Shown piece after piece: positions 2,366-50,814 of a stretch of DNA of 64,000 bases. The translations under genes were made by a program, and so were the position numbers. The notes below the pieces were generated by a model, which searched no databases, was not told the DNA's origin, and was given only the letters and a program-made list of their open reading frames with translations. Within the stretch, counting starts at the first letter, position 1; the number at the start of each line of letters is the position of its first letter. Where the stretch lies: NCBI RefSeq assembly GCF_037042905.1, contig NC_087250.1, positions 10,418,001 through 10,482,000 of the forward strand, read 5' to 3'. Source of the stretch: Lytechinus pictus (taxonomy: Eukaryota).

Positions 2366-3323
2366 AACAAGTGGAATGCCTCTGGCCGTCTCACCTGCAT
2401 CACGCGATTCAATATAGCAGCAGTGCTGATTTTGAAAACTACTATAACTCGCACAAGATGTTCAGTGATACTTGGTTACTCTTATTTCCACGTTTTATGA
2501 ACTAGACCAATACACTTATAGAGATATGATGGCAATTAAAAAAATACCCCCAACGTGGCCAAAGTTCTTTGACCTTACATGACCTTTGACCTTGATCATG
2601 TGACCTGAAACTCGCACAGGATGTTCAGTGATACTTGATTACTATTATGTCCAAGTTTTATGAACTAGACCAACACACTTTCAAATTTATGGCTGTAATT
2701 CAACAAATACCCCAATTTGGCCAAAGTTCATTGACCCTAAATGACCTTTGACCTTGATCATGTGACCTGAAACTTGCACAGGATGTTCAGTAATACTTGA
2801 TTACTATCATGTCCAAGTTTCATGAATCAGATCCATAAACTTTCAAAGTTATGATGGTAATTCAACAGATACCCCCAATTCGGCCAAAGTTCAGTGACCC
2901 TAAATGACCTTTGACCTTGGTCATGTGACGTGAAACTCATGCAGGATGTTCAGTGATACTTGATTAACCTTATGTATAAGTTTCATGAACTAGGTCCATA
3001 TATTTTCTAAGTTATGATGACATTTCAAAAACTTAACCTTAGGTTAAGATTTTGATGTTGATTCCCCCAACATGGTCTAAGTTCATTGACCCTAAATGAC
3101 CTTTGACCTTAGTCATGTGACATGAAACTCAGGCAGGATGTTCAGTAATACTTGATTAACCTTATGGCCAAGTTTCATGAACTAGGTCCATATACTTTCT
3201 AAGTTATGCTGTCATTTCAAAAACTTAACCTCAGGTTAAGATTTGGTGTTGACGCCGCCGCCGCCGTCGCCGTCGGAAAAGCGGCGCCTATAGTCTCACT
3301 CTGCTATGCAGGTGAGACAAAAA
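2366..3323. mobile_element. Helentron/DINE-1-like non-autonomous element with internal ~163-bp tandem units
   Basis: Subterminal inverted repeat GTCTCACCTGCAT (2388-2400) / ATGCAGGTGAGAC (3306-3318); terminal hairpin; (GCC)n; units start at 2457, 2620, 2782, 2945, 3137. Confidence 0.7.
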
Positions 3324-14906: not shown

Positions 14907-14991
14907 ATGCAGGCGACACGAGCATCCCTGTGGGGCTCACTCCTCCTGATAATAGGAGCGACTAATTTGCAGATATCCAACGCTCAAACTG
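14907..14991 (+). CDS. Exon 1: signal peptide [28 protein letters not shown]
   Basis: Basic N-terminus, hydrophobic core, SNA|Q cleavage-like site; donor G|gtaagt, phase 1. Confidence 0.85.
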
Positions 14992-17900
14992 GTAAGTCAT
15001 AACTTCCACGTAAATTGTGAGATAGCAATACATTTTCAATGTGATAGGGAAAAGAAGTACTGCGTTTTTAAAGAAGTCTACGTAAGAGAATTAACAAAAA
15101 CATACGTAGGAGTGCACTTGATTATTCTTAAAATAAGTGCCGAAATTTAGAAATCGAAGGATAAGGAAGTAACTTATTCACAAACTTGCATGTTAAAGGG
15201 ACTTACTTTATGATGGATCAGATTTTTAGGTTTAGATGTATACACTCGGTAGTTTTCGCCCCGCGAAGTAGAACGCGTTCAAAAACATAGAAAATGTATT
15301 GTCAAATGTTCTTTATGACAAAGAACAACCAAGCAATCTTTGTCAAAAAAAACGGTGAATCAGAGCAGCAGTTTCGTCCATAGACAGGACAAACGATCGA
15401 CATATTCGCATTTTCTTTTGACAGTTCCGAAACGTAGGACGATACTTCTGCTCCGGGTTGACCAATTTTCGATAAAGACTTCTCAGTGGTTCATAATCAT
15501 TTGGCAGACATTTTCAATACAATTACTGTGTTCTTTAATACATTCTGCGTCCCGTAACACAAAGGTTAGCGATTAATCGTTCGCTTGATTTTCACGATTG
15601 ATTGTACATTGTAGTCAATGAAATCAATCGTAGATAAATGGTCTACGATCATTGCTAAGTTTTGTCTTACGGGCCCCTGGGTCGCGATGCAAAAACTCCC
15701 TAATTACAATCTGATAAGAGAAGAAACGGTAAATTGCCACCTGGGCTTCACCAACGATTTGGTCTAATTGACATTATGTCATTTAATTTTAATTAAGGAT
15801 ATGTGTCTAACCATTTTGGATACTATATACTAGTTCGTCTGTATTGTTGGATGAAGAGTTTTCATTTGACAATGTAAAACATAACTGATTAGACAAAGTT
15901 GTAATAGCGTGCTTTCGATCTGCGACGGGCCTACGGGGAGCACTCGGTATACGGGGAAGTCAACAGACCGTGGCCGTACTCGAGTTGCGTTCCCGTCCTG
16001 TTCTAAACCCTTTTCGTTTGCGCTATCGACAAGTTGCGCTAACAACAAGTTGCTAAAACATTTTTGTAATTGCTTAAAATTGTTTAAAAAGTTCAAATAG
16101 TAGAGTGACGGGCTTAAACAACGTGTTTAAAATTTTTAACAGCTTTTTATATATAGACTAAACTGATTGTAGACCAAATGTTTAGCCTATATGTAGGCCT
16201 ATCGCCTGGTCTGAGATGAAAGCCCAATGGCTTGCAGACCAATGAATAAATTGAATATACCATGCTGTTCATAACTCTCGATGGTAGGCAGTTTTTGCAC
16301 CGTGACGAAGGAACACTTTCAAGAAAACAGAAAATGTATTGTCATATATCCTTCATGAGGAAGAGGTCTGTCGAAAATGAGTGAATCAAAGCGATAGTTT
16401 AGTCCTCTGGACAAACGACATATTTGCATGTTCTCATCTGCTCCAAAACTTGGGACGTAACTGCCGTTCTGGTTCACCGATTTTCGACAAAGACCTCCCG
16501 GCTGCTCATTGTCATTTGACGGGCATTTTCAAAACACTTACTGTTCTTGAATTCGTTTGTGTCGCGGTGCCCCTACTCTATGGACAACGTAGCGATAAAC
16601 AATAAAAGTAGGGCATATATCGACCACAGATGAATGACGATTCATTCGAGGAGATTGATACTCTGTCAGTAATGCCATTCTGTCATTTCCCTTTCATGAA
16701 ATCTCTTTTTCATCAAATCAAGAAAACATTCGGCTCGTTGGAGGGGAAAATGCCTACGAAGGTCGTATTGAGGTTCTACACGACGGCGGATGGGGAACGG
16801 TTTGTGACGACTCCTTCACAGACGTTGACGCACAGGTAGCTTGCCGCTCTCTGGGACTGACCGGGGGAGTCGCGCTCACACATGCACACTTCGGTCAAGG
16901 AAGTGGGCAGATTTGGATGGATAACCTAGCGTGCGATGGAACGGAGAACGCTCTTGACGAGTGTGGCCACAATGGATGGGGATCACACAACTGTGGGCAT
17001 CACGAAGACGCCGGCGTGGCATGCGAAGCACCAGCAGGTAGGTATATTATGTAAAGAAAGATTAAGATTTATCAATGGTGATGATAATAATAATAATAAT
17101 AATAATGATAATAATAATATTAACGATAATAATGATAATAATGATAATGATAATGGGGATAATAATAATAATAATAACAATAATAATAATGACTATTATT
17201 ATTATCATATTAATATGGTTAAAATGAATCTTTTTGTCTAGTATAGTTGTAGGGAAGGAACCCTTGAGAAAACAGTTCCCCAAAACGTTCTTTTCGTGCT
17301 CAAGGACCTTAACTGTTTTTTATAAAGCACTAAAACGCTTCCAAATAGCGGAAAAGCATATAACCCTTTTTTTCTAATAATGATATTTATTGTAATAATT
17401 ATAACAAAAATAACGATAATGATAATCACAATAATAATACCAGTGACGTCATATTTACTCATACAGGGTAGCCACTTCAGTTCCGGTAAATTCTTGTCCC
17501 AGTGGGCCTTGCTTACACTCTAAAAAAAACAGAGAGTCAAAATTTACCTAATATTGGGTAGAAAGGGAACATCCATGTTTGCTTGGTAATTTTCCCCTCA
17601 ATATTAGACAAAATTGCATGTTTGAAGGGTAAATTTCAACGCAACATTGCGTAAAATGTACAAAAATATTTGGCATTTTTTTACCTAACAAACACGCATG
17701 TTCCCATTTTACCCAATATTGGGTAAACCTTTTTTTTACAGTGTAACATGATAATAGGGAGTGTTCCCACAGCGAGTACGAACGATTGAGTACAGAGAAA
17801 ATGTATTGTCAATGCCATTCATGACAAAACAATTGAGAAAGAAAGAGAGAGACAGATAGATGGAGGGAGGGAGAGGGGAGAGAGAAGTGGGCATATTTTC

Positions 17901-20900
17901 GTATTTTATTATTAGGCCTATTCCTGTGACCCTCGAACTTGGAACCAATAATAAACCACCAGGTATTTTGAAATGTTTTAAGTACGTTTGGAATTGGATA
18001 AGCAGACTCGGGGGGGGGGGGGATCATAGGCATGCAACTTTAACACAAATTCAACACGGTTGAGTTCCGTCCGATGATTTTAAGTTCACCGATATCATTA
18101 TACAAGATACAAGATATTTATTTTGTCTTCGCAAACATTATTACAAAGAAATTTGTTTTCCACTGGTGTAATATACATTAGACATGCATGAACAACATCA
18201 AACAAAGAAACAAATAAGTTACACAGGTATGACGCAAATACAACAAAACATTTGCAAAAGTTTGAGTCATCCAGAATACTTATCATAATTATTAGCATTC
18301 AAATATTGTTATGCTTATTACTGACATTATTATTATTATCATTATCATTGTTGCCATCATCATCACTACTATTGCTTTTATTATATGGCAAATGTAGATA
18401 AACTCCTTGCCAAAGGACGCTAGTGCGTGTAGAATTCATGATTTATGTGGATAATAGGGAGTTTCGCAATATCAATAGGGACATGTTCTAGAACACAGTT
18501 GCCCGTATTCTGAAGTCGGGTTTAAGTTAAACTCAGGTTTAAAGTTGTGGTTTAAGTATGGGAAGCCAATAGTATCAAATTTGTTATTAAGTTGTATGTT
18601 TCTTATGTTTACTGTGCTCTTTCCTGATTCATCGATGGTGAAGCCAATAATCTTTTTATACTTCCTAAACAATTATGAATGATTTGAGAGCCAAATGAGC
18701 TGAAGTATGATATCTCTACTGTTAGTGATTTATGTAACAACTGGCTGTCCATACTATAACCACAACTTTAAACCTGAGTTTAAGTTAAACCCAACTTCAG
18801 AATACGGGCCAGTAAATCTATTGAAAATGAAAGTCAAATCACAATGGAGAGCTGAGAGGCCTTTGTCGAAAGTTGGTGGACCAGGACACCGATTCGTCCT
18901 AAGATAGGTTTGGGACGTACCGGACGAAATAATGTCGTTTGTCCAAAGTCCAGGATGACACCGCTGTTTAATTCATTCACAGATTTTCGACAAAGACTGC
19001 TTTGTCATGAGTGGCCGTTGACAACTTTCTCTTCTTTCCAGAAAGCGTCTGTGTAGTGGTTGCAAAACTCCCCAATGACACAAATTAAAACTAAAACTCT
19101 GTGTGTCTTAGGTATCCATTTGGAATTAGCAATTTTTGTATGTTGTCTTTCAATCAATCGGCACTTTTCGCATTTACTACGAGGAAACTCTCTACAACAC
19201 ACCAATTCTTTTGAAAATGCAAGTCATATCACAATGGAGAGCTGAAATGCTTTTGTCGCAAGCTGCTGGACCGGGACAGCATCGGAATCTCTTGACTATG
19301 GACAACGACATATTTGCAATTGTTCGTCCGGTGCAAATTTTCGGATGATCTGCTGTCCAAGTCCACCAACTTTCGACAAAAGCCTTTCAGCTCTCCATTG
19401 TGATTTTAAATGCATTTTAATTGTATTTTCAAAGGAATCGATGTGTTGTAGAGGGTTTCCCCGTAGTAAATGCGAAAACTACCTATTCACTTACGAGAGA
19501 CAATCTTCTTGTTTCATTCCAGCCGAACCTGACATTCGGCTTGTTGGAGGCACCAATGCTCTTGAAGGGCGCGTAGAGATCAAACACAACGGAGTATGGG
19601 GAACGGTCTGTGATGACTCCTTTTATGACAGTGACGCCGAAGTGGTCTGCCGTTCGTTGGGACTAAGTGGCGGGACGGTCCGATGCTGTGCAGCGTTCGG
19701 TCAAGGGAGCGGGCAGATTTGGCTGGATGATGTAACATGCAGCGGATACTCTGAAGACTCGCTTGGCGATTGCTATCACAGGGGATGGGGAAGCCACAAC
19801 TGCGCGCACAGCGAAGATGTGGGAGTCGTATGCGAATCAGGTATTTTCAGGTTTAATGACAGATCTTTGCAAATCGAATGGCGGTTCGCGGCGGTTTCCA
19901 ACCACCAAAGGCAAATCAGAACTTACGCATAATTGACGACGCTAATCTCGAGAGATATTTGTCACCATATCCGAAAGTGTGACCAGTGTTTCAACCACGA
20001 CCCTATGTATCAATATGTAACTTTTCCCATGTAGCTTGGAGTACTACAAGCGCACGCCACAACGCCCAGTTAGATGCTGAAGCCACGTACATGCAATGAC
20101 GTCATTGCGGCGCCATCTTTAGAGGTTCCAGGCATGATTACCTGCATCCGTTGATGATCTGATGAGAGGGAGTTTTCGAACCGTGACGCAGAACGCTTTC
20201 AAGAGCCTAGAAAATGTACTGTCAAGTGCCCACGTAACAAAGAACAGCCAAAAAGTCTTTGTCGAAAATTGGTGAATCAAAACAGCAATTTCGTTCTGTT
20301 GTTTTAATTGATTGAGTTTTGGGGGCGTTTTGTCCTGGACTGGCCAAACGACATATTTTCGATTTTTTCGACAGCTCCGAAACTTAGGTCGAAACTGCTT
20401 TCCGGTTCACCTATTTTCGACAATGGCCACCCAGCTACTAGTTGTCATATGGCGGCATTTTCAAAAGGCCTACATTTTCTATGTTTTTAAAAGCGTTTTG
20501 CGTCGCGGTGCGAAATCAAAATCTCAATGACAATGTCAGTGTCATCGGAATGAGAGCGCTAGCTATTATAATGAAATTATGACGTCATATGCGTAAGGTC
20601 TATTCTAGTATGCCGATTTTGGCAGGACTAACAAAAAGAGCATTGGTTTGTGACAATGGAAAATGACGTTAATGACACGCTTGATTAAAGAGGGGGAGAA
20701 CATGATCAACCAAGAGTGTGTACTCTCTCGTGGTAGAGATAACTAGTAGTAATGAAGAGAATGAATTAGCCTATAATCTTATTTTCCCAGAGAAACTAAA
20801 TTGCTTTGAGATAAAAAAAACAGGCCTCCTTATTTTGCTACTTGGTAATTGTGATATGAATGTATTCAGTATTGAATTAGTGTGCTATCATTCAAGTGGG

Positions 20901-23900
20901 GCTATCTTTGAAGACTACACTGCTCAGAAAGTTGCATTATGGGAAAGAACCTAGACAGATATGAGCTATTGTGTGCAATTTAACAGGGAAAAATTAATTC
21001 GCTTGCTCGTAAATTTTCAAGGGATACTCCAAGCTGAATATATTCATATCTAAATAAATAGGGTAAAATTCACAGAGGAAAATGCTTAACACTTCAACAA
21101 AATCGGATAACAAATAACGGAGTCATTTTAAAGTTTGCATTAATCCGGTGAAACAGTTCTAGGTATGCCTTCATGAATATTAGGTGGGCTGATGATGTCA
21201 CATTTGCACTTTCCCTTTTCTTATGTTATTGCATAAAATCATAATTGTTTCATTTTTTCATAAATGCGTATATGTTGTGTCTCCATTATGATGAAATAAG
21301 TTGCAGCAATAAATAACTAATGCACTTAATCAGTTATCAATCCAATCGTTTTAATTCTTGGTAGAACAATTTTGAATAAACATAATTTCATATAATAAAA
21401 TACAGGCCTAGAACTGTTTCACCGGAATAATGCAAATATTTAAAATTCAATAACTTTATTTGTTATCCGATTTTGATCAAATTTTCAGCATTTTGCTGTG
21501 AATTTTATCATATTTATATATATAAATGATTGATTTGATTTAATTATTTCCACGTAATAATCTTTTTTTTCTCAGCATCCGATTATTCATCCTACGATTA
21601 TTCATCCTACGATTACTCATCGTACGATTATTCATCCTACGATTATTCGTCCGATTACTCATCATACGATTATACTTCCGATTACTCATCCTACGATTAT
21701 TCGTCTGATTACTCATCCTACGATTATTCTTCTGATTATTCATCCTTCGATTATTCATCCTACGATTACTCATCCTACGATTATTCATCCTACGATTATT
21801 CATCCTACGATTATTCATCCTACGATTACTCATCCTACGATTATTCATCGTACGATTATTCATCCTACGATTACTCATCCTACGATTATTCATCCTACGA
21901 TTATTCATCCTACGATTATTCATCGTACGGTAAGAATGTCACAGCATTTTCAGAGCCTTATGAACCACCCCTAAATTTTTTTCAAGCCCCCCCCCCTGGA
22001 AATTACGTTGTTATGCTATTATGCATATCACTAGGCCTCTTTTACCAAATAAACAAAGATTCACGTTTCACTAACCTTTTTGGGAGGGGTTTGTGCCTTC
22101 ATTTGGTCTTTTTTTTTTGGGGGGGGGGAATCACCCAGTTTTGCGAGTAAGACTTTTTTTTTCAAAATATTGTTCATGAAAATCACCTTCACTTTTGGAG
22201 TGAAATTTTTTTATTTTTTTAAATTTGTTTATCGAATCCAAGCCACGGCGTGTTTTCTTTCCTTCAGCAATAAATTAACCCACATTGTGCCGAAGTGAAT
22301 GGGAATATGGTAGGAATTTGTTCCTTGAAACGCGGCGCGCGTAACAGCTGCTCTACTGTATAGCGCTTAGAGACTTCTGAAAAAGTAAGTGCACTGGCGG
22401 ATCCGGGGGGGGGGGCACAGCCGGCCTGTGCCCCTCTTTAACAGTGGAGACCTATATTTCGTGGAGGAAATGTCCTTAATTTTTGGTTGGAAACCTTTTT
22501 TTTTTTGCTTGTCAAATTTTTCCTCGGGATAATGCCCCCTCCCCCTTTGGAAAATCTTGGATCCGCCCCTGAGTAAGTATTAAGCGCTCTAGAAGCAAGT
22601 ATAGTTGTTATTATTAGTAGTATATAATAACGGGGAAATACAGAAGAAAATCCTAAAAAACTACAAAATGTAAAAATATATAATGAATGGGTGATAAAAC
22701 TTAAGAGAAACTATGATAATGAAGTTAAACCTAATATTAATAAAATTATAATAGTGGGAGAGAGAAGGTTGAGTTCCGACAGAGCGTTGCTTTTTATTAG
22801 ATCTCCTTCACTTTAATTTCGTGATGCACTGTAGGCCTATATATCTACTATTTGATATTTACATGTAGAATTCACGATTTATGCATAATAGGGTGTTTTC
22901 GCAATTTCAAAGGGGACATATTCTAGAACACAGTAAATCTATTGAAAGTGAAAGTCAAATCACAAAGGAGAGCTGAGAGGCCTTTGTCGAAAGTTGCTGG
23001 ACCTGGACAACATCGGAATTTCTTGACTCTAGACAACGACATATTTGCAGTTGTTCGTCCGGTGCAAATATTCGGATTATCTGCTGTCCAAGTCCACCAA
23101 CTTTCGACAAAAGCCCCGATCAGCTCGCTAATGTGATTTTAATTGCATTTTCAAAGGAATCGATGCGTTGTAGAGGGTTTTCCCGTAGTAAATGCGAAAA
23201 ATACTTTTTCACTTATACGACAAACAATCTTCTCGTTTCATTTCAGCCGAACCTGACATTCGGCTTGTTGGAGGCACCAATGCTCTTGAAGGGCGCGTAG
23301 AGATCAAACACAACGGAGTATGGGGAACGGTCTGTGATGACTCCTTTTATAACAGTGACGCCGAAGTGGTCTGCCGTTCGTTGGGACTAAGTGGCGGGAC
23401 GGTCCGATGCTGTGCAGCGTTCGGTCAAGGGAGCGGGCAGATTTGGCTGGATGATGTGACATGCAGCGGATACTCTGGAGACTCGCTTGGCGGTTGCTAT
23501 CACAGGGGATGGGGAAGCCACAACTGCGCGCACTATGAAGATGTGGGAGTCGTATGCGAACCAGGTAGGCCCCCTATTTACATCAAATTTTCAGGTTTAA
23601 TTACAGATCTTTGAGAATCGAATGGCGGTTCGCGGCGGTTTTCAACCACCATGAGCAAATCAGAACTCACGCATAATTGACGACGTTATCCTCGAGAGAT
23701 TGGAGAGAGTGTGTATGTGTGTGCGTGTGTTATGTTAGGGTGTGTGGGTGAGCGTGTAGTTGCGTGCGTGTGTGTGTGTCGGTGAGGGTAAGGGTTTGTA
23801 GGATTGATTTTGGACAGATATGTATCACTCAAATTATTTAGGTCTGGGACCGACCTAACCGTCACCATATCCCGATAGCGTGACCAGTGTTTCAACCACG

Positions 23901-26900
23901 ACCCTCTGTATCAATATGTAACTTTTCATATATAGCTTGGAATACATGCAGGCGCACGCCAGAACGCCCAGTTAAATGCTGAAGCATCTTAGAGCACCGT
24001 GACGCAAAACGCTTTCAAGAACCTAGAAAATGCTGTCAACTGCCCTCGTTACAAAGAGCAACCAAGAAGTCTTTGTCGAAAATTGGTGAAACAAAACAGC
24101 GGTTTCGTCCTGTTGTTATTGATTGGGTTTGGGGGGCGTTTCGTTCTTTACTCTAGCTGGCTAAACGGCATATTTTCAACGTCTTCGACAGCTCCGAAAC
24201 TTAGGATGAAACTGCTTTTCCGGTAGCCTATTTTCGACAATGACCTCCCAGCAATTAATTGTCATATGACGGCATTTTCAATAGGCCTAGATTTTCTATG
24301 TTCTTGAAAGCGTTATGCAACGCAGTGTGAAATGACAATGGCAATGTCATTGCCATCAGAAGGAGGGCGCTATGAAATGATGACGTCATATTCATCAGGT
24401 CTATTCTAGTACATGTATGATGATTTTGGGAGGACAAACACGGGGTATTAAAAAAGAGCATTGGTTTGTGACAATGGAACAATGACGTTAATAACACGCT
24501 AAAGAGGAAGCCAACATGACCAATAACGTATGTAGTCTCTCGTTATTATAAATAGATATATCAGACTACTAGTAGTAATAAAGATAATTAATTAGCCTAT
24601 AATTTATTTTTCTAGACAAACTAGATTGTTTTGAGATGAAAAACAGGCCTACTTATTTTGCCACTTGGTAATTGTGATATGAATGTATTTAGTACTGAAT
24701 TAGTGTGCTATCATTCGAGTGGGGCTATCTTTGAAGACTACACTGCTCCGAAAGGCGCATTATGGGAAAGAACCTACCCAGATATGAGCTCTTGTGTGCT
24801 ATTTAAAGTGATTGGTTAACATTGGCTTGAATTTCAAAAATTCTGAGCTAGAAGGTCACACTTGTCACCTGTGTCTGTGATATGTTACAAAAATGAAGCC
24901 CAGAAAAAATTGCGTTCGAAAATAATTATTTAGTGCTTCAAAAATTGAAATATAAAGTGACCGAAAACACCACCTTAATATCATCCCATACACTTATGTG
25001 TACTAGGCGTCTATAAGACGCCTATTTACAAAATCGGGGTTTGCCTTGTAGTTTTAGCTTTTCATTCTCAATAATGGTTGTTTTCAGGGTTTATTAGTTC
25101 TAATACATGCACTTGTACACATGTTTCATCTTGGTTTGAGAATTTTTTTAATCGGCTGCTCACAAAGTTAAACAATACCTTTAACAAGGAAAAATTAATT
25201 CGCTTGCTCGTGAATTTTAAAGGGATACTCCAAGCTGAATATATTCATATCTAAATAGGGTAAAATTCACAAAGCAAAATGCTTAAAATTTCATCAAAAT
25301 CAGATAACAAATAACGAAGTTATTGAATTTTAAATTTTGCATTATTCCGGTAAAACAGATCTAGGCATGCCTTCATGAATATTCATTAGGTGGGCTGATG
25401 ATGTCACATTCACACTTTCCCTTTTCTTATGTTATTGCATAAAATCATGATTGTTTCATAATTTTCATAAATGTGTATTTGTTTTGTCTCCATCATGATG
25501 AAATAAGTTGCAGCAATAAATAACTAATGCACTTAATCAGTTATCAATCCATTCGTTTGAATTCTTGGTAGAAATATTTTGAACATAGTTTCATATAATA
25601 AAAAAAGGCCTAGAACTGTTTCACCGGAATAATGCAAATATTTTAAATTCAATAACTTTATTTGTTATCCGATTTTGATCAAATTTCAGCATTTTGCTCT
25701 GTGAATTTTATCATATTCATTGAGATATAAATATTTGATTTGATTGAATTATTTCCACATTTCCATACCAAAAGTATATACAAGTGTAATAATCTTTTTT
25801 TCTCAGCATGTGATTATTCATCGTATGATTATTCATCGTACGATTACTCATCGTACGATTACTCATCCGATTACTCATCCTACGATTATTCATCCTACGA
25901 TTACTCATCCTACGATTATTCGTCCGATTACTCATCCTACGATTACTCATCCTATGATTACTCATCCTACGATTATTCGTCCTACGATTACTCATCCTAC
26001 GATTACTCATCCTATGATTATTCATCGTACGATTATTCATCCTCCGATTACTCATCCTACGATTACTCATCCTACGATTACTCATCCTACGATTATTCAT
26101 CATATGGTAAGAATGTCACAACATTTTCAGGGCCTAATGAAATAAATCCACATTTATCTTTAAAATGTGCGCTGGATCATAACAACTAACCTCATGTAAT
26201 TTATTCTGTCAGTTTTGACCTATGGGGGTTAAATAGGCAAGAAATTGAGGTCTTAAGCAAGTATTATCTTCTAATGGGAATGCATTCAAAGGTCCTTCTT
26301 GTGTATAATTTTATGCTGATTCCAAATATATTAGTCTTAATGACCCTATTTAACCGCTTGTGGTCATTTTGGTCATTTATGTCCCTCAAAATGACCAATA
26401 ATACAAGTTCAATTTATCTAAAAGTACTTTGAATGTTACCAACCAGAATCGCTACGAGGGTATGTTGTGACAACTAACACTGGTGTATTAATCCTTTGAA
26501 TTGAACATCTCAAAAGTATTTTGACCTCATGTCACTTATTCAATCAGTTTTGACCTATGAGGGTCATCTTGGGTACTTTAGACATAACTGACCATTCGCG
26601 CAATTTTGCATAATAAACTGCAAATCGACAAGAATTTGAGGTCTTCAGCGTGTATCTTCTAAATGGGAATGCATTTAAAGGTCCTTCTTGTGTAGAATTT
26701 TATGCTGATTCCAAATATATCAGTCTTAATGACCCTATATAACCGCTTATGGTCATTTTGGTCATTTATGTCCCTCAAAATGACCAATAATACAAGTTCA
26801 ATTTATCCAAAAATACTTCAAATGATACCAGAATCGTTAGAAGGGGGGCGTGCTTTGACACCAAGCATTTGTTTATTAATTCTTTAATTTAATTTCATTA

Positions 26901-29900
26901 CATTTACTTTATTTCTTTGTATAACATGTTGTAAATTTTCTTGTATTGCATTGTATCACTTTAAGCACAAATTCTTAGATACCACTTTGATTTTTATCTC
27001 ATCTAAAATATATTATTGATTACATGTATTTATATTTTTAATGTCAGGACCATGATGAAAAACAGTTTTTTAACTGATCCTGAATAACTACATTTGAATA
27101 AATGAATAAATAAATTGAACATCACAAGAGTATTTTGACCGCATGTAACTTACTCCATCAGTTTTGACCTCTGAGGGCCATTTTGGGCACTGTAGAAATA
27201 ACTGACCATTCGCGCAGTTTTGCATGTCTTCATGAACGAACAAACTGATGATCTCTTATCGCCATTTGTTTTTTTCGTATTTTATTATATGAAATTATGT
27301 TCATTCAAATTTTGCACTCCAAGAATCAATAAAACGGATTAGCAATTGATTTAATGCATTGTACATGTATATTCACCATGTTCACTGCTGCAACTGATTG
27401 TATTGCAAGGGAGACAATGGAGACACATGTATGAAAATATGAAATAATTATGATTTCAATTTGTAATAACATGAGAAAAGGAAAATTTGGGACATCAAAT
27501 CATCAACCCACCTGATGAATATTCAAAAGGTTGTGCACACAACTGTTTTCACAAAATATTGTTCAACTTTGAAATTGAATAACTTCATTATTTGGTATCC
27601 GAATTTTATGACATTTTCAGGAGTTTGCTTAGTGAATTTGCTTTATGTATTTAGATGATAATTATTTTCATCCCGGAGTACCCTTTTTAAGTTCAGTATA
27701 ATTAATTTATTCATTTTATATCTAAAACAATGAGTATATAAAGCACACATCAAAATAATATTCTAATGTGATTTATAGAATATTATAAATATGAAAAAAA
27801 ATAAGATAATACAAGTAACATAAATCTGAGTACGATTAGGCTTATATATTAACATAATAAATGAAAACTAAGGCCTTAAACTTAAACGAATATTTGCCTT
27901 TTATAAATAAATTTCGGTTTATACAATATTGTCTCTGTATCATCGGGTTAAAGGGACTTTGATCATACACTGCAAAAACTCCGGTGTTGATTTCCTACCA
28001 GCCCGGAATCTATGTATGCCCACGCCAGAGAAGTATTTAAACAACACCAGTTGGGAATCAAACCGAGGCTGCTTTTAACACTAATTGGTATTGTATTAAC
28101 ACCTATCTGATGTTAGACCAAAACTCAACTGGTGTTATTGTTTAACATTTCTCTGGTGTGGATATAGATTCAAGACTGGTGGTTAATCAACACATGAGTT
28201 TTTGCAGTGTAATAACTGCACCTGACACTTTTCTAGATGAAGTACATTGTAAATCCAGGGATTTACACAAAGGTTAGCGTGCTAGACTTACCACTTGGTA
28301 ATGGACCAACCTGGGATGGCCGAGGGCACGACATTTGCTCCGGCGACAAGTAATCCGGGCTTTATTTCCTCCAAGATATAGGGTTAGGGTTATGGTTGCA
28401 ATAGGGTTTTATGTTGTTAGCTTATAGATTTAGAATACGGTATAGCGTTAAATCCAGCCGAGGATTGAGTTAGTAATTTCGGTAGTGTGTGGACTTTACA
28501 GTCAGACGGCAGGTCCCAAGAAAGTGGCTTCTTTCATCCAAGTGATATTTATGACTTGAGATGTTTTGCATATTTAATGAGCTTGATGCGGACCAAAACA
28601 CCTCTTTTCATTCGGTCATTGCTGCTCTAATTGGGCATCGAATTTCATGAATTTGGTATCATTGTAAAGAAGAAGAATCATTCTTTTAGGTCATGTGTTT
28701 GAATTTATTCAAAGATTTTGTAATATTGGTTGAAATTTTTATCTAAAATATGCTACAAAATGATTATTTTCACCTGACAAAAGCTGATATTTTCACACTT
28801 TATTTTAGTTTGAGCCCAAATGATTTTAGATCATGACAAAGCTGAATATTTATGCTTTAAAATGGAATAGATTTCAAAATAAGAATTGGTTTAATCGGGT
28901 CAAGATCACACTTTTCATTGGCCAAGTACATAAAGCATAAAGCAGCTTTAAAACAAGAATACTGCACTCTGATTGGTCAAAGAGACCACACACTGGCAAA
29001 TTCCAACGGCTCCAGTGCCCGGGTTCATGGGAAGGTCACACTTCCCATGTGGTAATCTCCTCAAATACCCCGCGCCTGTTGTTCTGTGAATCTTATCCAG
29101 CCAATCAGAACTCTGGATTTCATGCAAGTAAAACAATTCAGAAATCTCGTCTTGTACCTTGGTGGGAAAAGTGTGATCTTGACCCGATTAAATGGTGCTG
29201 CAAATCAAGAGTGGCATTGTGAGAAAGTACAGAAGTTCAGCTTTATGGTGATATAGATATCATTGAGGCTCAAAATAAAAAGTTTTGCACAATTTGCAAA
29301 AGAAAACAGAGAAAGATAATTCAGTTTGAGGCACATTTTCAGGTCAGAAATTTACTTATTTAACAAAATATGGTATACAAAATAAATGACCAATATGAAA
29401 GAGTAACATTTACTCTATCTGATGGTGCAATAATATTTCATTTAACTTGAGATTAAAACAGGTAAATTCTTAGAGAAAGAAAATCTCACGAATCACGAGA
29501 TTTTGCAAGAAGAAGGATTCAGCCACGTGATGATTTGGATGAATCTGGCCTTTTTGCTCATTAGCATATGGACCTGCGGTCTGACTGTTTACAGCGGAGC
29601 AAAATTTTCATGGAACCAACCGGTGAAGGGGACAATTTGTGCTGATCGCGAATTCCCATTTCTGTTTGGTCTCTCTCTCTCTCTCTCTTAGGTTGTCGAT
29701 CCGATCAGTTCCAATGCTACGACGGTCAATGTATACCAGGTTCTTGGATATGTGATAATGACAACGACTGTAGATATGGCGAGGACGAATACAATTGTGG
29801 TGGTAAGACCTCAAAAAAAGTTCCAAGTTTCTGTTTCATTTGTGTCATGAAAAAAAATGGAACAAACCTAAATATCGATCTGTTATCAAGTTTCTACAGC

Positions 29901-32900
29901 TGGGAGGCATGGCCCTAGTCTGCAGGCACAGACCCTGATTGGAACTTTGATCGACAAGCGTGTCTCCACGCTAAAACTAGCACATACAACACTTGCTGTA
30001 GAGGGCCTTCAGCAGAGACTCCAACCCCTAGCACCTTCTGATCTGGAGATTCTCCCGCCTGGATCCCCAAGCAAACTGGAGACTCCAACTTGATTAGCGC
30101 GAAGCGCACATCACGAGCGCGAAGTCCTTTGTTGCCGGGGTGTAGGGCCCACTTAAGGGCCCTGGAAGCTCTAGGATCCTAGATGCTCTACCAAGCTATC
30201 TCAGGCTAATTTTCAATATATGATGGCTCTAAGTAAATAACAATTCAATTAATCAAATCATACATTTTGGTTTTATAAAACTTCTTTTCATATATCATTA
30301 TTCATGCATGCATATGAAACTGATAAGCATCTATAAAACCATACATTTTTGCGATATCATTATTCGTATCAACCAGTAAAGACATAATAAATACTACCTC
30401 ACCTTAAATTGACATTTCCATATCCATCTTGTCTCATCTGGGGCCTGTTTTTTAAAGGACTTACACGTAACTTTGCCACAATGGCAACTACCATGGTAAA
30501 AGGACTCATCCGCCAATCATAATCAAGGTTTCCATGGTAGTTGCCCTAATCATGATAATGGCAAAGTTACAACAGTTGCAAGTCCTTTATGAAACGGACC
30601 CATGATGATGATCTCTGGAGTAAAATTGCTTAAAGTTGGTTATCAGCAATTTTACTGATTCTCTAATTATTTCACTTGGTATTCCTAAAAAACCAAAATG
30701 AAGGAATTTCCTCACTTTTTACATTCTAATTATATATAGTCATCAATTCATGTCATGTTATCAATTTTTTAATTGGTATAATATATGCAACGTAATAGGA
30801 GGGCCTATAGGAGGGATGATGCTATCTAGATAGCTCGCGCCCGCTAAATAACGAGATTGCGCACAGCTTTGACGCTCTAGTTACCTTGAAATCTGCTTAG
30901 ATATGAAAATTCAATTGTAGTTTTTAAAAAAAGGCGTTTGGGCGGGAGAAAGATCATTTTTAGGGGAAGAAAAATACATCTTAAGTGGGAGAAACAGAGC
31001 CTGGGCGGGAGATATTAAATCTCAAGTGGGAGAACGGGAGAGTTGGAGTCTCTGCTTCAGTACACAAGGCATGAGTAGGCTGCAATTCAGACCCTTTATT
31101 CGAGTGAAGGGTTTGCACAGCAGACTAGCATGGCCCCAGCTGAGACTTGGAACTCTTTGATTAGGGTAACCCCCGTAACCCATCCAATTTCTTGGAACGA
31201 TTTGCGACATTATCACCGTGAGACCAAGGAGGAGTCAAAACAATGGGAGCATCCCACGTCATCAACCCCAACGAAGGCCGACACAAGTTCGTCCATATTT
31301 CATTATAGACTTTAATGATTCAGGAACCTGTAGAATAAGACTAAATATTGGACACAATGCTGTGTTCTAAGAAATATAAAAGATTTCATTGACCAAATTT
31401 TGTTTTCACATCATAATCCGTTTTATGTGTTAGGCTCAAAACTTTTCAGTCGCCCCTCGTGTTTCGTTTTAGTTCAGCAGGGTAGCCCCATCAGCAATTG
31501 GGATACTAATTGGGGTAATAATAATAATAACATTGCGCCTCAGAATAGAGTGTTTCTAGATAGAGGGCGCTATACAAATGCCTATTATTATTATCATTAT
31601 GGGGCCCTGCAAAAAGACATAGAGGTACAAATATTGAGAAATAAACAGAAGATGCTTGAATATAATTTAATTTCGAATACAAAATAGTTTAATTGATAAG
31701 GATTAATATCATTTCGGTCTTTTGTCTTTTCAAAAACAGATTACACAACGAGTTCCCCCTGGAGACCGTGGACTACCGAGTCTAATAGTAAGTATAGATC
31801 AACGAACGTCGAGGGCAGCGAAACTGCAAAATTTTGATGCCCTCCACGTTCGTTGCTAAAGAAGACAATTTTTTTACTTAAGATTTATATTCTACACCAT
31901 TATTATTATTATCATTATTCATGCTTATATATGTAAAAGGAGATGCTCGCCATGCCGAAAAAATTGGTTTTAATAAAAGCATACATAAAAAAGAAAATAC
32001 CCGGGGGAAAATATTGGTCAAGGTCTACTGAATCCATCACAGATAAAGAGATATATGAATATTCATACTTAATGTATGCCGTCATTTGAGACCAGCTCTC
32101 CTATCTTACATGTGATGCACATTTCATAAATTTTTTTTTCGAGAAGCATGAACAAAAACATTTTGTCGAAGCTATAGAAGGTAGTTTGGAATGATGTGAT
32201 AGATGATTTTTCTAGGCCTTTACAAATAAAATGATAAAATTAACTTCATATTTTTTTATATTTATTAATCAGAAATTTGCATTTTGGGAAATGAATATTA
32301 TACGACATAAGGAGGAACTAATCGTCGCTTTACAAATAAATTGCTTTATTATTCTTTAGGTGATTTTCATCAAATTTCCTCCAGTTTTTCCCACTTTTCA
32401 AGTACCAACTTATCGACAGGGTGAATTTCCTCTTTAAAGACAATATTTATCCGTGGCGAAAAATGAACCAGTCATTTTTCATTTCATTGCTTCCCACTTG
32501 ATGAAAAAGGAAGTTAAATTTGTTTATATACGAGATCCAACGATAAAACATTTTTTTTAAGGTCAGTGTTTGTTTTGTAATCAATAAATATCTCAGGATT
32601 CTATGAAAGAAAATAATAACACCTAACAGCCTTGTGGAACACTTCTCAGCCTTATTACACTTTAAGATGAATTGGTCACTATTAAGTAAATGTAGTGGCG
32701 CATGCTGTTGAACATGAAACTTAACTTCTCTTTCTATACATTATTTCCATTAAAATTTTAGATTTGCCACCATGGACAACAGGGTCATCCGGTATGTAAA
32801 CAAAGTTCATGTGATATAATACTTCAGTTATTTTAATTGTTGATCATTGATCATCAAGGTTGCTTTTGCATATCCGTCGCTCGAGTTATAAGATGAATAT

Positions 32901-35900
32901 TTTAAGTGAATATTTATCCTCAGTCGAAGTATACCATCCATTAGCACTATGTGGATTAACCTTCAGATAACCTTACTATGTATTGAAATCATCGTTGGCT
33001 GGAGGACAGGAAGATAAAACCCCTTATTATGACCGTTCGGATCCCCCAAACAATAAATTAAATATCGTTTGGTTTGTATTCATCATAGTCTAAGGATTAC
33101 AGCAGAAAAGATGTGGTGACATTGCACAGCCTTGCGGAAGACCTCTCCTTTTATCTTCCACATGAAACTTGAATTTAATATGGTCAAGATATGAAATATC
33201 TTAGGTCACAGATGGTTTTAAACGTAAGAGCAGAACGCATGCAAGAACACAGTAAATGTATTGACACTGCAAGGTCGCGAGGTCTTTGTCAAGAATTGTC
33301 GAACCGGAAAAGCAGTTTCGTCCTGAGTTTTGGAGGTGACAAAAATTTGTCCAGATTCCTGAACATAACAGCTGTTTTCACGGTATCATGACATCATGAC
33401 ATCCAGCGACATTTGCTCTGGTCTTAATATCTCAGAGAGCATAGGGTTAGATTTAGGATTGTAATTATAGTTTTTTGTTCAGAATAATACAAAGCTAGGG
33501 ACTAGGTTTATTCAGGTTTGAGGGTTAGGTGTCATGTTTGGCTTAACGTGCATATTTTCCATCGGAGCGATTGTCGCCGGAGCAAATGTCATGGAACCAT
33601 TTTGATTCACCTAGTTTTCGACAAAGACTTCAAGGTTTTTGTTTTGTGATGAAGGAAATTTGACAATGTATTTTCTTTGTTCGTGAATCCGTCATGCGTT
33701 GTGGAGCGAAAAGTACCTAATTAAAATCCCCTTTCTGACTTGTAAAAGTCTCTGTCTGCCCGGTTGCAAATCTTTAGTGAGGTGTTGGCGAGCTAGGAAT
33801 ATCACCGTCTGGCATGAGGCTAAATGGGAAGTAGGCGAAATGGATGTATACCAATCGACAATTTACTTTTCTCTTTTCTCTCTCTTTCTCTTAGCTTGTG
33901 GATCCGATCAGTTCCAATGCTACAACGGTAATTGTATTCCAGGCTCCTGGCAATGTGATTATATCAACGATTGCTCATATAACGAGGACGAACAAAATTG
34001 TGGTGGTACGATCTCTTATGATTACTCTATATAAATATAAAGAAATACATAAATAAATAAATAAATATATATATATGTATTATATATATATATATGTATA
34101 TACATGTACATATACATACATATATATACATATATATATATAGGTATATAGTATAGTAATAGGGTGGAGCGAGTTGCTTAGATTTTAGTTGTACAGACTG
34201 TTTCCCCCTGAGGGTTCATCAGCAACAATATATAGGTATATATACCTATATATAGGTATATATATATTCATACATACATATACATATGTATATGTAATAT
34301 ATATATATATATGTCGTTTGATTTCAGCAGGTTAGCCCCATCATTAATTGAGATACTATTGTACACGGGGGCCCTGCATAACATAAAAACACATAGAAAC
34401 ACAAATATATAGAAATTTAGAGATGATACTGGAATATAGTTTAGTTTCGAATACAATATAATTTAAGTGATAAGGATTTATGTCATTTTTTTCTTCTTTT
34501 TTTTGTAGAATACACGACATATTCATGGCCACCCTGGGAACCGGAGCCTACCGAGTCTTATGGTAAGTATAAATAAACGAACGTTGAGGGCAGCAAGACT
34601 GCAAATTTTTGACGCCATCTACGTTCGTTGGTAAGATGAAGACTATTACACGTAAAGTTGGAGACTCACCATGCCGATAAATTAGTTTTAATAAATAACA
34701 AAACAGATTTACTGTATAGAGGAAAATAAAGGTGATGGTTTTATGAACCCATTACGGAATGGAGAGATGAATTTTTATTATGCTTGACGTCATGTGCGAC
34801 AACCTCTCCTATATTACATGGGATGCACATTTCATGAATTCCACTTTTTTGTTTTCATGAAACATGAATACAAAAAAAATTGTTGAAGCTGTAGAAGGTA
34901 GTTTGGAATGATGACTTGTGTCGGGTGATTTATCTAGGCCTTTACAAATGAAATGAGCTTCATATTTTTTAAAGTGTATTTATTTATTAGAAATGTTCAT
35001 TTTATGGAATTAATACTATACACGAAATAAGGAGGAGCTGATCGTCGCTTTTTAAATTAATTGTTGTATTATTCTTTAGGTGATTTTCATACAAAAAATA
35101 TTATAAAATCTCATGCATTCCCGTTTTTAAGTTAATAGCTCAATTATTGTTCGCTACTGCTCCTGCACCTACACTGAACCCACATATACAATAATATTGT
35201 GTACAATTATTACGAGGCCGCCGCCATTATCAAGTTTAGTCGCTCACGATGGCGGTCTCCAGCATTCATTTCAATTACCATTTTGTTAAATGAATAATAC
35301 AGTTCGTTGGTATTTATTTTCATTGCTTATATTACTCTTTAGTGTACTGTTGATTTGTTCTGTAAAACCTTTCTATGTGTTATGTTCCGGGGTTAAGATG
35401 TACACCCATCCTGCTGTTATTATTATTTATTATTATTATTATTATTATCATTATCGTTATTGTTATTCATGTACAGAAGTACATATAATATTTTCCTTCC
35501 TCGATGGAGTTATCCAACGAATAGCATTTTGCCCGAAGCGCACAGCGCTGAGGGAAAATATTCTCCCGAGAAGAATATACAACTTCGGAGCAGTGTCGCC
35601 AGGTTCATGCTGAAGAAAATGCCCAAATCCCCAGATTTCCAAATAAATTCAGATAAAAGTCGGGACTGTTACTGCCCCAAAAATAGTTTATGGACTGTGT
35701 GTTCTCCTACACTGAACATGATAACAAATGGCCTTTTCACACGTGAATCTTGAATCATCATTGTAATGATGATCCGCCATTCGTCTTTATAATCATCGGA
35801 CCTTTCACACGCTCACTCGAACACTGATTTGAATTCGAATTCCCGAGCGAAGGCGGTATGTGTCCTTGGTGACATGTCAATCAAAGCACTGCATCGCAAA

Positions 35901-38900
35901 TACAATGCACTTCCTTTTATTTCCGTGATACAATGCTTAAAAGTTCACGTAATTAAGCTCCGCCCTATGATGTTTTGGAGGTCAAGCTTTTCACACGTAC
36001 AATTCGTATCGTAATTTGCGTTAATCTTAACTGGAATTAACCTCCGGAGTAGAATTTGAATTCGTGATTGTGATTAGCGTTCGTGATTCTAATAATGTTC
36101 TAATATGGTTTCACACGTGCTAAAAATACGTCATTGGCTTTATTTTCCACTGCATGGAATCATCAATTTTTTTTACCGTGTGAAAGGGTGGAATATAAGT
36201 GTTGCCAATCTCAAATGACAAAAAAATCAAAGACTGCAAATTCCGGATTCAGGTTCGCGAAATATGTTTTTGAGCTGTCGGTGGAAACACTGATTCTCTC
36301 TTTTTGGTTTAACTTTTAAAGGTTGCATGCCCGACGAATTCAGATGTTCCAATGGTTCTTGTATACCTCATTATTGGATTTGTGATCATTTCACCGATTG
36401 TCCCAACGACGAAGATGAGGAGGATTGCGGTGAGTTTGAGTTGGTTTACTACTATCTTTATTTTTTGTTAATTTAGAGAAAAACAATAGTGTTAATCTTG
36501 GTATAGGGTACTCAGCCGAGCAAGGAGTTTCACTCACCTGCGTATGCTCGAGGCAGCATAATATATTCAGCTAACTGACCCTATTCTCTGCCGCCAGATG
36601 TTCGAAAGAACCTTTGCGTTATTTTAGTTACTTTGCTTCAATTTACGGCTGTATTAAAATCCTATGTCTACCTTGACAGCTAATCACAGCTCGTCTATTA
36701 ATTTGTTTTCTCCTCCATTGATATTAGTCATAATACATTTTTGAAATATATTTAATGTGTATAAATAGTGACGATGGTTACTTTTTGAGGAACGTGTCAC
36801 ACATGAATTTGGTGTAATACCATATAATATACAGCAAACAGCGTTGTAAAAAGTTTAAATAGCTTTTTTTGCGTGAATGCTTTATCATTCTTTTTTATGA
36901 AAGATTGAAATATATACCATTTACACATATACGTATCCATGTCTTGCAAAAATAGACCCTCTTTCCCAATTTTGGCAACCTACTTACCCTTTCCATTAGG
37001 ATGTATGTTTAATGCCCTGGAAAGCGAGGGGGTAATGCGTACACTGCAAAAACTCCGGTGTTGATTTATTACCAGCCCGGAATCTATATATGTCCACACC
37101 AGAGGAGTGTTAAACAACACCAGTTTCGTTTTGGTCTAAGACCAGATAGGTGTTTATACAACACTAATTAGTATTGAAACAGCATCGGTTTGATTCCAAA
37201 CTGGTGTTGTTTCAATACTTCTCCGGTGTGGACACATATAGATTTCGGGCTGGTGTTAAATCAACACCGGAGTTTTTGCAGTGTATATTATTTACCATAC
37301 TAGGCAGCACTCCTCCCCCACCCCCGCTCCGGAAATCAGGATGGTACTCTTAAATATAGAAATTTAATTAAAATAACCTTCATTTTTCGAGCGGATGCTT
37401 TTTTGTTGTCAATTTCTTTCCCAAGCCAGCACACCCTCTTCAAAAAATGTTCCCGGCATTACCCTGTGGCAGTGCCCCCCACCTTTTTCCAAGACATGCC
37501 GCTATTTCCCAAACGACATTTATTTATTTATTTATTTATTCATTTATCTATTTATTTATTTATTCATTTATCTACTCATTTATTTATTCATTTATTCATT
37601 TAATTATTTATTCATTCGTGTTTTCTTTATAAAAAGCAGGGTAGTCCCTTCTTTACAAGGGAGCCCTGCTATCATTAAAATTCGAACATCATACAATCAT
37701 AATTATAACAAAACAATTAAAATACACAATACAAAAATAATATATATACATAAAACAATGGGAGGAATAAGGCCCATACATATGACAAACGTAGTGTAGG
37801 TAAGGTTATGTCGTCCAAAATACATGTTTTATGTCAATTTCTTTCTTTCCATCATAAAAGACAGAAAATAGTAGGGGGACATTTGATATGGTGCCCCCTA
37901 CTATTTTGGGTAGGGGGGACACGTCCCCCTGTCCCCCCCTGGAATTTCCGCCCATGCTGGTAACAAATTGAATAGTTTGCTGCTGGAAAGGACTGTTTTT
38001 TATACTCGGTTCTTGGTTTTGCGAGATACATGTTGGTAGAGTAGGCGGCTGTAGGCCTACACCTTTTTAAGATCTGGGACCGGCAACACAAAGGTTATTG
38101 ATTAATCTCTAAATGAAATAGCCTATCAAGATCATCGTTGCATGCGCGTTTTGCTTAGTAGACCGACCAGGAACCAATCAGAATGTTTCTTTCAAATTAG
38201 CGATTAATCGTTCATCTGTAAGCCACGGGGCTCTGAATTTTTCAATAAAGAAATATTCAAATAAATTCAATTAAACATTAATTTTCTTCCGATTGACATG
38301 TCATCCATTTTTCATGCAGAATATACAAATCAATAATACATCATTAATATAGTACAAAAAACAATGAATATAAAATACAGTAGGCCTATGCAAATTATGT
38401 ACATGGAAATAGGCGTAAAAACCCCGAAAGCAAGTGCTTGTGTCGGGATTCGCCTGTAAAAGTATAATTATGTCTAAACAACAATTTTGAAAAAATAAAA
38501 ATTCCAATGGTTCGCGGCATGGGTTAATAAGGGCCAACTTAATGTAAAAGACGTAAATAAACTAGACAACTTTGAGGTTACGTGTAACTGTCTTTAATAA
38601 CCATGGCCAAGAGACCAAGACTAGGTGGCGCGCTTACACTTTGCGCTTGCAACATCGAATCATCATTATAATGCTAGCGTCGATTTTTGTTTTTGTCCAT
38701 AGATTACCCCACACCAAACCCTGCAGGCTATTTCGAATGCCCAGAAGGCACTATCATACCTAGCAGCGACCAATGCAACGGATACGTGGACTGCTCAGAT
38801 CACTCTGACGAAGCGTTTTGTGGACCGAGTAAGATTTTTATTTTATACAGGAGTTTCTGCATTTTATTCATAAATCAATAACAAGTGAAAAAAAACCTTT

Positions 38901-50703: not shown

Positions 50704-50814
50704 AACAATTTAGTTCATCTGCTCGGTTAATGCAATGCGGGAACCCATCGCAAACGTACAGTTGTGCCACGCACATACCGTTGCATAGCACATAGTTAGG
50801 ATAGCTCTCGCATT
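50704..50814 (-). CDS. Second LDLa exon of the minus-strand gene (CESYPNYVLCNGMCVAQLYVCDGFPHCINRADELNC)
   Basis: ttctaaag acceptor, T|gtgagt donor; 111 nt, phase 1-1; 6 Cys. Confidence 0.85.

Follow-up and report, generated by a model that had tools for sequence, protein, structure and literature searches.

What would a protein gain from long runs of a five amino acid (aa) unit of aspartate, tyrosine and serine placed behind two of its SRCR domains? The question is raised by a 64,000 nucleotide (nt) stretch of Lytechinus pictus DNA (NCBI RefSeq assembly GCF_037042905.1, contig NC_087250.1, positions 10,418,001 to 10,482,000 of the forward strand), here termed the window, whose own numbering is used below. 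A gene model of 17 exons and 956 codons spans positions 14907–44719 of the + strand, from an ATG at 14907 to a TAA at 44717–44719. Its frame is uninterrupted and all of its introns (16/16) are of the GT-AG type. Exons 4 and 6 are tandem arrays of DYSSY-type units. They are read here as coding linker exons within a tandemly duplicated cassette, which may encode an acidic, unfolded and multiply tyrosine-sulfated spacer; the chances that this reading holds as a whole are about even.

21576–21929, + strand: exon 4, array 1, 354 nt, 24 DYSSY-type units with 43 Tyr, phase 1-1 (Tandem Repeats Finder, unit parsing, splice borders)
25807–26106, + strand: exon 6, array 2, 300 nt, 20 DYSSY-type units with 37 Tyr, phase 1-1, starting with Ala-Cys (Tandem Repeats Finder, unit parsing, splice borders)

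Tandem Repeats Finder places array 1 at 21580–21929 (period 15, 24.1 copies, score 497) and array 2 at 25812–26101 (period 15, 19.7 copies, score 412). Both exons have a polypyrimidine tract and AG upstream and GTAAG downstream, with the acceptor AG and donor GT at 21574–75 and 21930–31 for array 1 and at 25805–06 and 26107–08 for array 2. The reading frames start at 21578 and 25809 and give S(DYSSY...)n and C(DYSSY...)n, respectively. Parsed in the Asp-Tyr frame, array 1 has 19 DYSSY, 3 DYSS, 1 DYTS and 1 DYSSF unit and array 2 has 17 DYSSY, 2 DYSS and 1 DYSSS unit; variants lie toward the 5′ end and a uniform DYSSY run toward the 3′ end. Unit length is 15 nt in 38 of the 44 units and 12 nt in the other six, every length variant being a whole codon. 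The original prediction of two minisatellite exons with 24 and 20 such units and 80 Tyr proved exact in coordinates and counts, and its view of the length variants as whole codons (15 versus 12 nt) is true for 44/44 units. Both arrays have the properties of a coding minisatellite, i.e. a head-to-tail unit whose length is a multiple of three within a spliced open frame.

An open frame by itself is no proof of coding here, because each array can be read without a stop in three of the six frames (the DYSSY frame, a second + frame reading HPTII..., and one – frame). The 44 units were aligned column by column, and cells were compared with the majority base of the column or with the consensus codon. 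Forty of the 43 cells that depart from the column majority fall at third codon positions of the DYSSY frame; in either of the other phases, third positions would coincide with a single variable column. At the codon level, 39 of 42 departing cells are synonymous and three are not (S>T, Y>F and Y>S). With each type counted once, seven of ten distinct variant codon types are synonymous, compared with 9 of the 45 possible single-base changes (binomial p = 8.6e-4). The Asp codon GAT is invariant in 44/44 units and Tyr is replaced at 2 of 82 Tyr-codon positions. Only the DYSSY frame displays both the third-position pattern and in-phase joining to the flanking SRCR exons. Since the variation is concentrated at third codon positions, the array peptide is judged to be under selection, as had been proposed from the mostly synonymous substitutions, and the arrays are judged to be protein-coding linker exons in frame with the SRCR exons.

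If the arrays were unexpressed, they would be either intronic minisatellites wrongly taken in by gene predictors or parts of a silent gene. The L. pictus RefSeq models of the locus give some room for this, as they are fragmented: the annotation appears split into at least three partial models, and model P0002 (XP_054757274.1) compared over 29692–29850, has the first LDLa exon in a shifted, wrong frame and skips SRCR2 and SRCR3. However, the third-position pattern would be unexpected for intronic satellite DNA, both copies have perfect AG/GT borders in phase with their neighbours, the 956 aa frame is intact, and the arrays are kept in frame in a second species. Lack of expression is considered very improbable. 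Spliced SRCR-array pieces were also looked for among short database proteins with residues 150–270 of the L. pictus model P0025 as query (563 matches at E ≤ 1e-20 of 2127 candidates). Among the matches listed none exceeded 70% identity, and coverage was mostly about 75% (50%–97%); judged by identity and coverage alone, these look like ordinary SRCR domains.

How the two arrays came to lie behind two similar domains is explained by their surroundings.

19523–19840, + strand: exon 3, SRCR domain 2, 8 Cys including a vicinal Cys-Cys, phase 1-1 (Pfam PF00530, E 1.2e-29)
23247–23564, + strand: exon 5, SRCR domain 3, paralogue of exon 3 (Pfam PF00530, E 2.9e-28)
19165–21965, no strand given: first copy of the duplicated segment, with SRCR exon 3, intron and array 1 (self-blastn)
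22896–26141, no strand given: second copy of the duplicated segment, with SRCR exon 5, intron and array 2 (self-blastn)
21402–21528, no strand given: dispersed repeat of about 130 bp in the intron just upstream of array 1, with a further copy upstream of array 2 (DNA search of the same genome)

The cassette of one SRCR exon and one array exon was copied by tandem segmental duplication. In self-comparison the segment copies are 80%–88% identical in blocks, and the similarity stops 35 nt past the array exons. One array lies behind SRCR2, one behind SRCR3 and none behind SRCR1, in agreement with the earlier description of arrays that come after the duplicated SRCR. Exons 3 and 5 differ at 8 of 318 nt (97.5% identity) and the flanking introns are 85%–91% identical. 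Six codons are not the same in the two exons, five of them with a change of amino acid. This pattern suggests gene conversion or diversifying selection, the counts being too small to test.

The dispersed repeat gave 44 listed matches, from 1237 first-look candidates, in its own genome. It was considered as a source of the arrays and rejected, as no DYSSY-type repeat follows in any of the other copies inspected (8/8). No DYSSY array beyond the two was found in this genome; elsewhere the DNA search gave only the dispersed intronic repeat. Matches from the protein search of the genome outside the window are at most 37% identical, and the four loci inspected (L013, L014, L018 and L019) are unrelated simple repeats. 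L013 (G000:C19:5170071-5173265) displays an (HPNYD/HPNYE)n sequence that is open over about 130 residues, with several frames open.

The arrays were then compared across assemblies, by way of the proteins that RefSeq predicts for L. pictus and L. variegatus. Outside the repeats, the present sequence is identical to L. pictus models P0025 at 238/239 and P0026 at 177/178 positions (99.4%–99.6%), and is 87%–92% identical to the L. variegatus models. Models of both species hold arrays at the same places. The L. variegatus models, annotated as "DMBT1-like", have four SRCR domains and three arrays, i.e. one cassette more than is present here; the cluster also includes a pair of additional L. variegatus isoforms and two fragmentary L. 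pictus proteins. In P0025, array 1 is 36 units long compared with 24 here, and a landmark DYTS unit is common to both. In two near-identical L. variegatus gene models the arrays have 35 or 34, 22 or 24, and 12 units, and isoform X2 lacks 29 residues (6 units) within array 3, which leaves 6. The number of array Tyr is 80 here and up to 130 in L. variegatus models. Unit-number differences are always whole 4- or 5-residue units; each array thus appears to grow and shrink by whole units, as minisatellites do. Copy number had been expected to vary, and the comparison bears this out at the level of assemblies rather than of genotypes.

Since unit number differs so widely between close sequences, the exact array length would not be critical. 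This favors the possibility of a minisatellite that has grown inside a linker exon as a tolerated spacer, with selection acting only against stops, frameshifts and sticky or charged residues and with modification being irrelevant. The other linkers of the gene are short, of different sequence and also on their own exons, and the Ser/Thr-rich SIDs of DMBT1 are described as without known ligand binding (PMC3100851). However, Asp GAT is fixed and Tyr nearly so while silent sites vary freely, and the DYSSY unit is kept in all three L. variegatus arrays despite about 9% protein divergence elsewhere. A generic spacer would not call for such close conservation of Asp and Tyr, and the plain-spacer reading is disfavored; it is nevertheless the foremost of the alternatives, with perhaps one chance in a handful. 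The locus would then be a tidy yet ordinary case of a coding minisatellite.

A protein search with the DYSSY array, which had been proposed earlier, was run as a word-based search with array 1 (8000 scored candidates). It gave three matches, two Lytechinus proteins (one an uncharacterized L. pictus protein of 505 aa) and one bacterial protein. The C-terminal 188 aa of the L. variegatus protein P0001 matched only P0001 itself. Exon 15, compared with 1.84 billion representatives, gave 21 matches, of which the close ones are only the two Lytechinus proteins. These searches are weak evidence that the gene may be restricted to the Lytechinus lineage. A Protein Atlas search was uninformative (best score 0.87, to bacterial low-complexity clusters). 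In the literature searched, no paper was found with the motifs DYSSYDY, YSSYDYS or YDYSSYD, nor any mention of the six accession or LOC identifiers searched for. The array exons are already within automatic RefSeq models and their annotation itself is not new. What sets the locus apart from known cassettes of SRCR domain and linker is that a coding minisatellite of Tyr, Asp and Ser serves as the linker.

The remaining exons show in what kind of protein the arrays are set.

14907–14991, + strand: exon 1, start codon and signal-peptide-like N-terminus, 28 codons and 1 base (tblastn of P0001/P0002, GT donor)
16723–17037, + strand: exon 2, SRCR domain 1, 6 Cys, phase 1-1 (Pfam PF00530, E 1.1e-30, AG/GT borders)
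29692–29802, + strand: exon 7, LDLa module 1, with an alternative in-phase donor 3 nt upstream (Pfam PF00057, E 2.7e-12)
31740–31787, + strand: exon 8, linker mini-exon of 16 residues, phase 1-1 (tblastn with the P0001 linker, AG/GT borders)
32762–32791, + strand: exon 9, linker mini-exon of 10 residues, phase 1-1 (weak tblastn match, E 0.049; supported by phase and splice sites)
33895–34005, + strand: exon 10, LDLa module 2 (Pfam PF00057, E 6.7e-12)
34509–34562, + strand: exon 11, linker mini-exon of 18 residues, phase 1-1 (tblastn with the P0001 linker, splice borders)
36322–36429, + strand: exon 12, LDLa module 3 (Pfam PF00057, E 2.6e-11)
38703–38828, + strand: exon 13, short linker and LDLa module 4 (Pfam PF00057, E 5.4e-09)
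40925–41038, + strand: exon 14, LDLa module 5 (Pfam PF00057, E 8.2e-07)
42320–42568, + strand: exon 15, YYDSWS coding repeat (42326–42378), then a divergent somatomedin-B-like Cys domain (Tandem Repeats Finder, Pfam, HMMER relatives)
43722–43774, + strand: exon 16, short connecting exon ending in phase 0 (tblastn, splice borders)
44543–44719, + strand: exon 17, Arg-rich basic tail and TAA stop (tblastn, splice borders)

The order of parts is a signal-like N-terminus, an SRCR domain, two successive units of SRCR plus array, five LDLa modules with linker mini-exons, a somatomedin-B (SMB)-like domain and the Arg-rich tail. The N-terminus in exon 1 holds the most hydrophobic 19 aa window of the protein. 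Hydrophobic segments are otherwise lacking, and a soluble, secreted product seems likely. The three SRCR domains score 98–106 bits against a Pfam cut-off of 26.1, each lies on one exon, and their PDB matches include CD163, DMBT1 and MARCO. The five LDLa modules score 29.6–47.1 bits (cut-off 24.1). For exon 15, the Pfam SMB profile (PF01033) is below its cut-off (E 0.43, 11.4 bits versus 23.1). HMMER gave relatives of this exon with E from 6e-22 to 6e-7; four of these were checked and proved to be true SMB proteins (4/4), and the Cys spacing C-x-C-D-x2-C-x5-C-C-x-D-x4-C fits SMB by eye; the Cys domain is best called a divergent SMB-like domain. The same exon carries a second coding minisatellite besides the DYSSY arrays. 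It consists of 2.9 copies of an 18 nt unit encoding YYDSWS (97% matches) and has one unit more than L. pictus model P0026.

The three linker mini-exons between LDLa modules, of 30–54 nt and each of phase 1-1, encode Thr/Trp/Pro/Glu-rich linkers. Two of the three display a W-x-x-W motif (WRPW and WPPW) beside Thr-Thr-Glu-Ser stretches. W-x-x-W is the consensus for C-mannosylation, and the Thr-Thr-Glu-Ser stretches look like O-glycosylation sites. The tail encoded by exon 17 has 23 Lys plus Arg among 58 residues and contains three R-x-K/R-R motifs of the furin type, within an otherwise very acidic protein. It could serve as a pro-piece that is removed by cleavage, or as a partner for the acidic arrays within the protein.

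Among known proteins, DMBT1 (SALSA, gp340) is the closest in layout. Its SRCR domains are likewise in tandem, each followed by a low-complexity linker (as are SRCR2 and SRCR3 here); its Ser/Thr-rich SIDs lie between SRCR domains and are thought to be extended by glycans, and the number of SRCR-SID cassettes varies between alleles (PMC3100851). Unlike the linkers described here, which are (DYSSY)n minisatellites of 99–117 residues, the SIDs are 20–24 residues long, Ser/Thr-rich and O-glycosylated. In addition, the present gene has LDLa and SMB-like modules and no CUB or ZP domain. In DMBT1 orthologues a run of SRCR domains and SIDs is followed by CUB and zona pellucida (ZP) domains, whereas Pfam analysis of the full P0001 sequence gives SRCR and LDLa only. 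The RefSeq name "DMBT1-like" reflects SRCR similarity only. The locus exemplifies linker exons: every inter-domain linker is on its own phase-1 exon. As a consequence, cassettes of domain plus linker can, as in DMBT1, duplicate without a break in the frame.

The SRCR domains also depart from group B, which is defined by eight Cys including a C1–C4 pair and by a single-exon domain (definition from PMC3100851). Each domain here is on a single exon, but SRCR1 has six Cys, and in SRCR2 and SRCR3, which have eight, the extra pair is an adjacent Cys-Cys at a place where CD163 has no Cys; the C1 and C4 positions are occupied by Leu/Glu and Leu. This vicinal pair (RCCAAFG) is kept in L. variegatus and is absent from SRCR1. 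Another observation on Cys is that the first residue of array 2 is Cys (TGT, 25809–25811); the corresponding residue is Ser in array 1 and Asn or Tyr in the arrays of L. variegatus. This Cys, at the point where SRCR domain and array join, would be unpaired.

The three urchin SRCR domains keep residues that have a known role in DMBT1. The SALSA/DMBT1 SRCR domain is reported to bind heparin and hydroxyapatite through cation sites D1019, D1020, D1058, D1059, N1081 and E1086 (PMC7043408). Mapped by spacing and not by direct alignment, SRCR1–3 have the corresponding Asp-Asp, Asp-Asp (Asp-Asn in SRCR1), Asn and Glu. These residues fall in columns that are conserved in CD163 alignments.

Within this secreted mosaic, the arrays would be linker exons of symmetrical phase 1-1, each behind an SRCR exon. 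They are read first as spacers because they stand in place of the Ser/Thr-rich SIDs of DMBT1. Together they contain 44 Asp, 80 Tyr (43 and 37) and 89 Ser and no Lys or Arg. Each peptide, of 99–117 residues, is made almost solely of Asp, Tyr and Ser, with no basic or aliphatic residues, and most likely forms an unfolded, strongly acidic spacer that would keep the SRCR domains apart.

The Tyr residues of this spacer are candidate sites of sulfation. Asp directly precedes 44 of the 80 (position –1) and directly follows 34 (position +1), and 2 are at array ends. Sulfation is described in a review as favored by acidic residues within ±5 positions, with a neutral or acidic residue at –1 being permissive and a basic one abolishing it (PMC6272617). 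The same genome encodes an orthologue of tyrosylprotein sulfotransferase (TPST; Pfam PF13469, 194.5 bits; E 1.4e-95 to human TPST1). The enabling features of a TPST substrate are thus all found here, i.e. a signal-like N-terminus, acidic surroundings of Tyr, a –1 position that is never basic and a TPST gene. The original prediction had likewise pointed to Tyr beside Asp as a favorable context for TPST. Given that each Tyr adjoins an Asp, that the protein is predicted to be secreted and that a TPST gene is present, the most likely reading is that many Tyr of the arrays are sulfated, whether or not Ser is modified too. Sulfation would turn them into polyanionic, glycosaminoglycan-like rods comparable with the extensions of fibromodulin and osteoadherin. 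The sulfotyrosine-rich acidic regions of these SLRP family members (class II/III) are reported to mimic heparin and other glycosaminoglycans in binding basic clusters, and they also bind collagen (PMC7310474). Both kinds of protein are secreted and have clusters of Tyr beside acidic residues. The SLRP regions however lie at the termini, are short and irregular and have few Tyr, whereas the arrays are internal and perfectly periodic, with 37–43 Tyr each and with sulfation that is only predicted.

Several points weigh against this interpretation. Only two Asp lie within ±5 of each array Tyr, and many known sulfation sites have more acidic residues near the Tyr than the arrays do. Skipping of either array exon would preserve the frame, and the RefSeq models that carry the arrays are automatic predictions. 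Part of the difference in array length between assemblies could be assembly error in the repeats. As no orthologue outside Lytechinus was found in the searches described above, deep conservation is unusable as an argument. A single-sequence AlphaFold2 model of P0025 has no bearing on disorder, as its mean pLDDT is 37.9 and the SRCR domains are poor too; since the model is poor throughout, the lack of structure in the modelled array says little.

The same Tyr residues could be used in another way. A secreted peroxidase might zip the 80 Tyr, exposed as they are in low-complexity stretches, to those of neighbouring molecules by dityrosine cross-links; the arrays would then be its substrates and the protein a matrix component, e.g. 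of the fertilization envelope, a clot or a cuticle-like layer. Several fertilization-envelope proteins are rich in LDLa modules, and the present protein has five. There is also a precedent in the sea urchin fertilization envelope, which is described as hardened by dityrosine bonds formed by ovoperoxidase, with Ca2+-dependent protein complexes (PMC2114886, PMC2113521). Dityrosine chemistry however does not need the invariant Asp beside Tyr, and sulfation would block the phenol group. SRCR domains are not a known feature of envelope proteins. No link of such a protein to envelope or adhesive proteins was found in the literature searched. Cross-linking of this kind is doubtful, and somewhat less probable than the tolerated spacer. 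DOPA formation on these Tyr, which the original prediction also raised, would be a further candidate modification.

Asp and Ser could also be the residues that matter, in which case the arrays would bind Ca2+ or mineral through Asp and phosphoserine, in the manner of the (Asp-Ser-Ser)n repeats of phosphophoryn, with a role in calcite formation or calcium storage. DYSS resembles the DSS of phosphophoryn with a Tyr inserted, the arrays are rich in Asp and Ser without basic residues, and the predicted protein as a whole has an isoelectric point of 4.05. The hydroxyapatite binding reported for DMBT1 SRCR domains via their cation sites (PMC7043408) would fit as well. On the other hand, conservation is strongest at Tyr and Asp, and such binding leaves Tyr without an obvious role; the arrays have no Ser-x-Glu kinase motif. 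The set of SRCR, LDLa and SMB domains is unlike that of the known urchin skeletal matrix proteins. A mineral-binding function is improbable, and less likely than cross-linking.

Returning to sulfated spacers, a bolder extension would make the arrays built-in ligands as well. The SRCR domains keep the DMBT1-like Ca2+-dependent polyanion site and the Arg-rich tail resembles the basic clusters that are bound by sulfotyrosine, and for these reasons both are candidate binders of the arrays. If the arrays were ligands for the protein's own SRCR domains, Ca-dependent self-assembly would be possible: cation sites and tails of one molecule would bind the arrays of its neighbours, giving a calcium-triggered, self-assembling extracellular gel or agglutinin. 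Valency would be tuned by minisatellite length and cassette number, perhaps with release through furin-type removal of the basic tail. This reading is speculative and improbable.

If the arrays are modified as the sequence suggests, the protein would have more sulfotyrosine or cross-linkable Tyr per molecule than any described protein. With up to 80 sulfated Tyr, or about 130 in L. variegatus, the arrays would be the densest sulfotyrosine polymers known. A repeat that changes its length easily would be a natural system for learning how site number tunes binding, gelation or adhesion, and its unit of five residues would be a simple template for polyanionic biomaterials. L. pictus is genetically tractable, and knock-outs and length variants are feasible.

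Three further likenesses concern the repeat itself. Like mucin-type exons with a variable number of tandem repeats, the arrays have head-to-tail units of a multiple-of-3 length in variable number, and their extracellular product is of low complexity; variants gather at one end and the opposite end is uniform. Mucin repeats however are rich in Pro, Thr and Ser, in contrast to Asp-Tyr-Ser-Ser-Tyr. The only non-urchin match (E 8e-18) is the bacterial wall protein P0003, which displays about 170 residues of (YDYPS/YDYSS)n after a signal-like N-terminus but is a DUF11-type surface protein; this likeness is judged to be compositional and convergent and not one of homology. The graphite-binding phage-display peptide IMVTESSDYSSY contains the heptapeptide SSDYSSY, which also occurs in the arrays and is printed in 11 papers, but it is a synthetic 12-mer selected on graphite. 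The likeness is a motif coincidence, with a hint that YSSY can stick to surfaces.

Elsewhere in the window, two open frames on the – strand, at 50606–50848 and 52707–52964, encode LDLa sequences (Pfam E 2.7e-06 and 8.6e-09) and are probably exons of a neighbouring convergent gene. Remains of retrotransposons are present at 58665–61828 (– strand), with a reverse transcriptase, an endonuclease/exonuclease/phosphatase domain and a PHD finger, and at 62519–63253 (+ strand), with a second reverse-transcriptase fragment. Non-coding long-period tandem repeats are found at 2446–3252 (163/192 bp, 2–3.5 copies) and at 46001–46833 (418 bp, two copies, within a TG/GA-rich tract), and non-coding arrays of 103/41 bp lie at 55925–56218.

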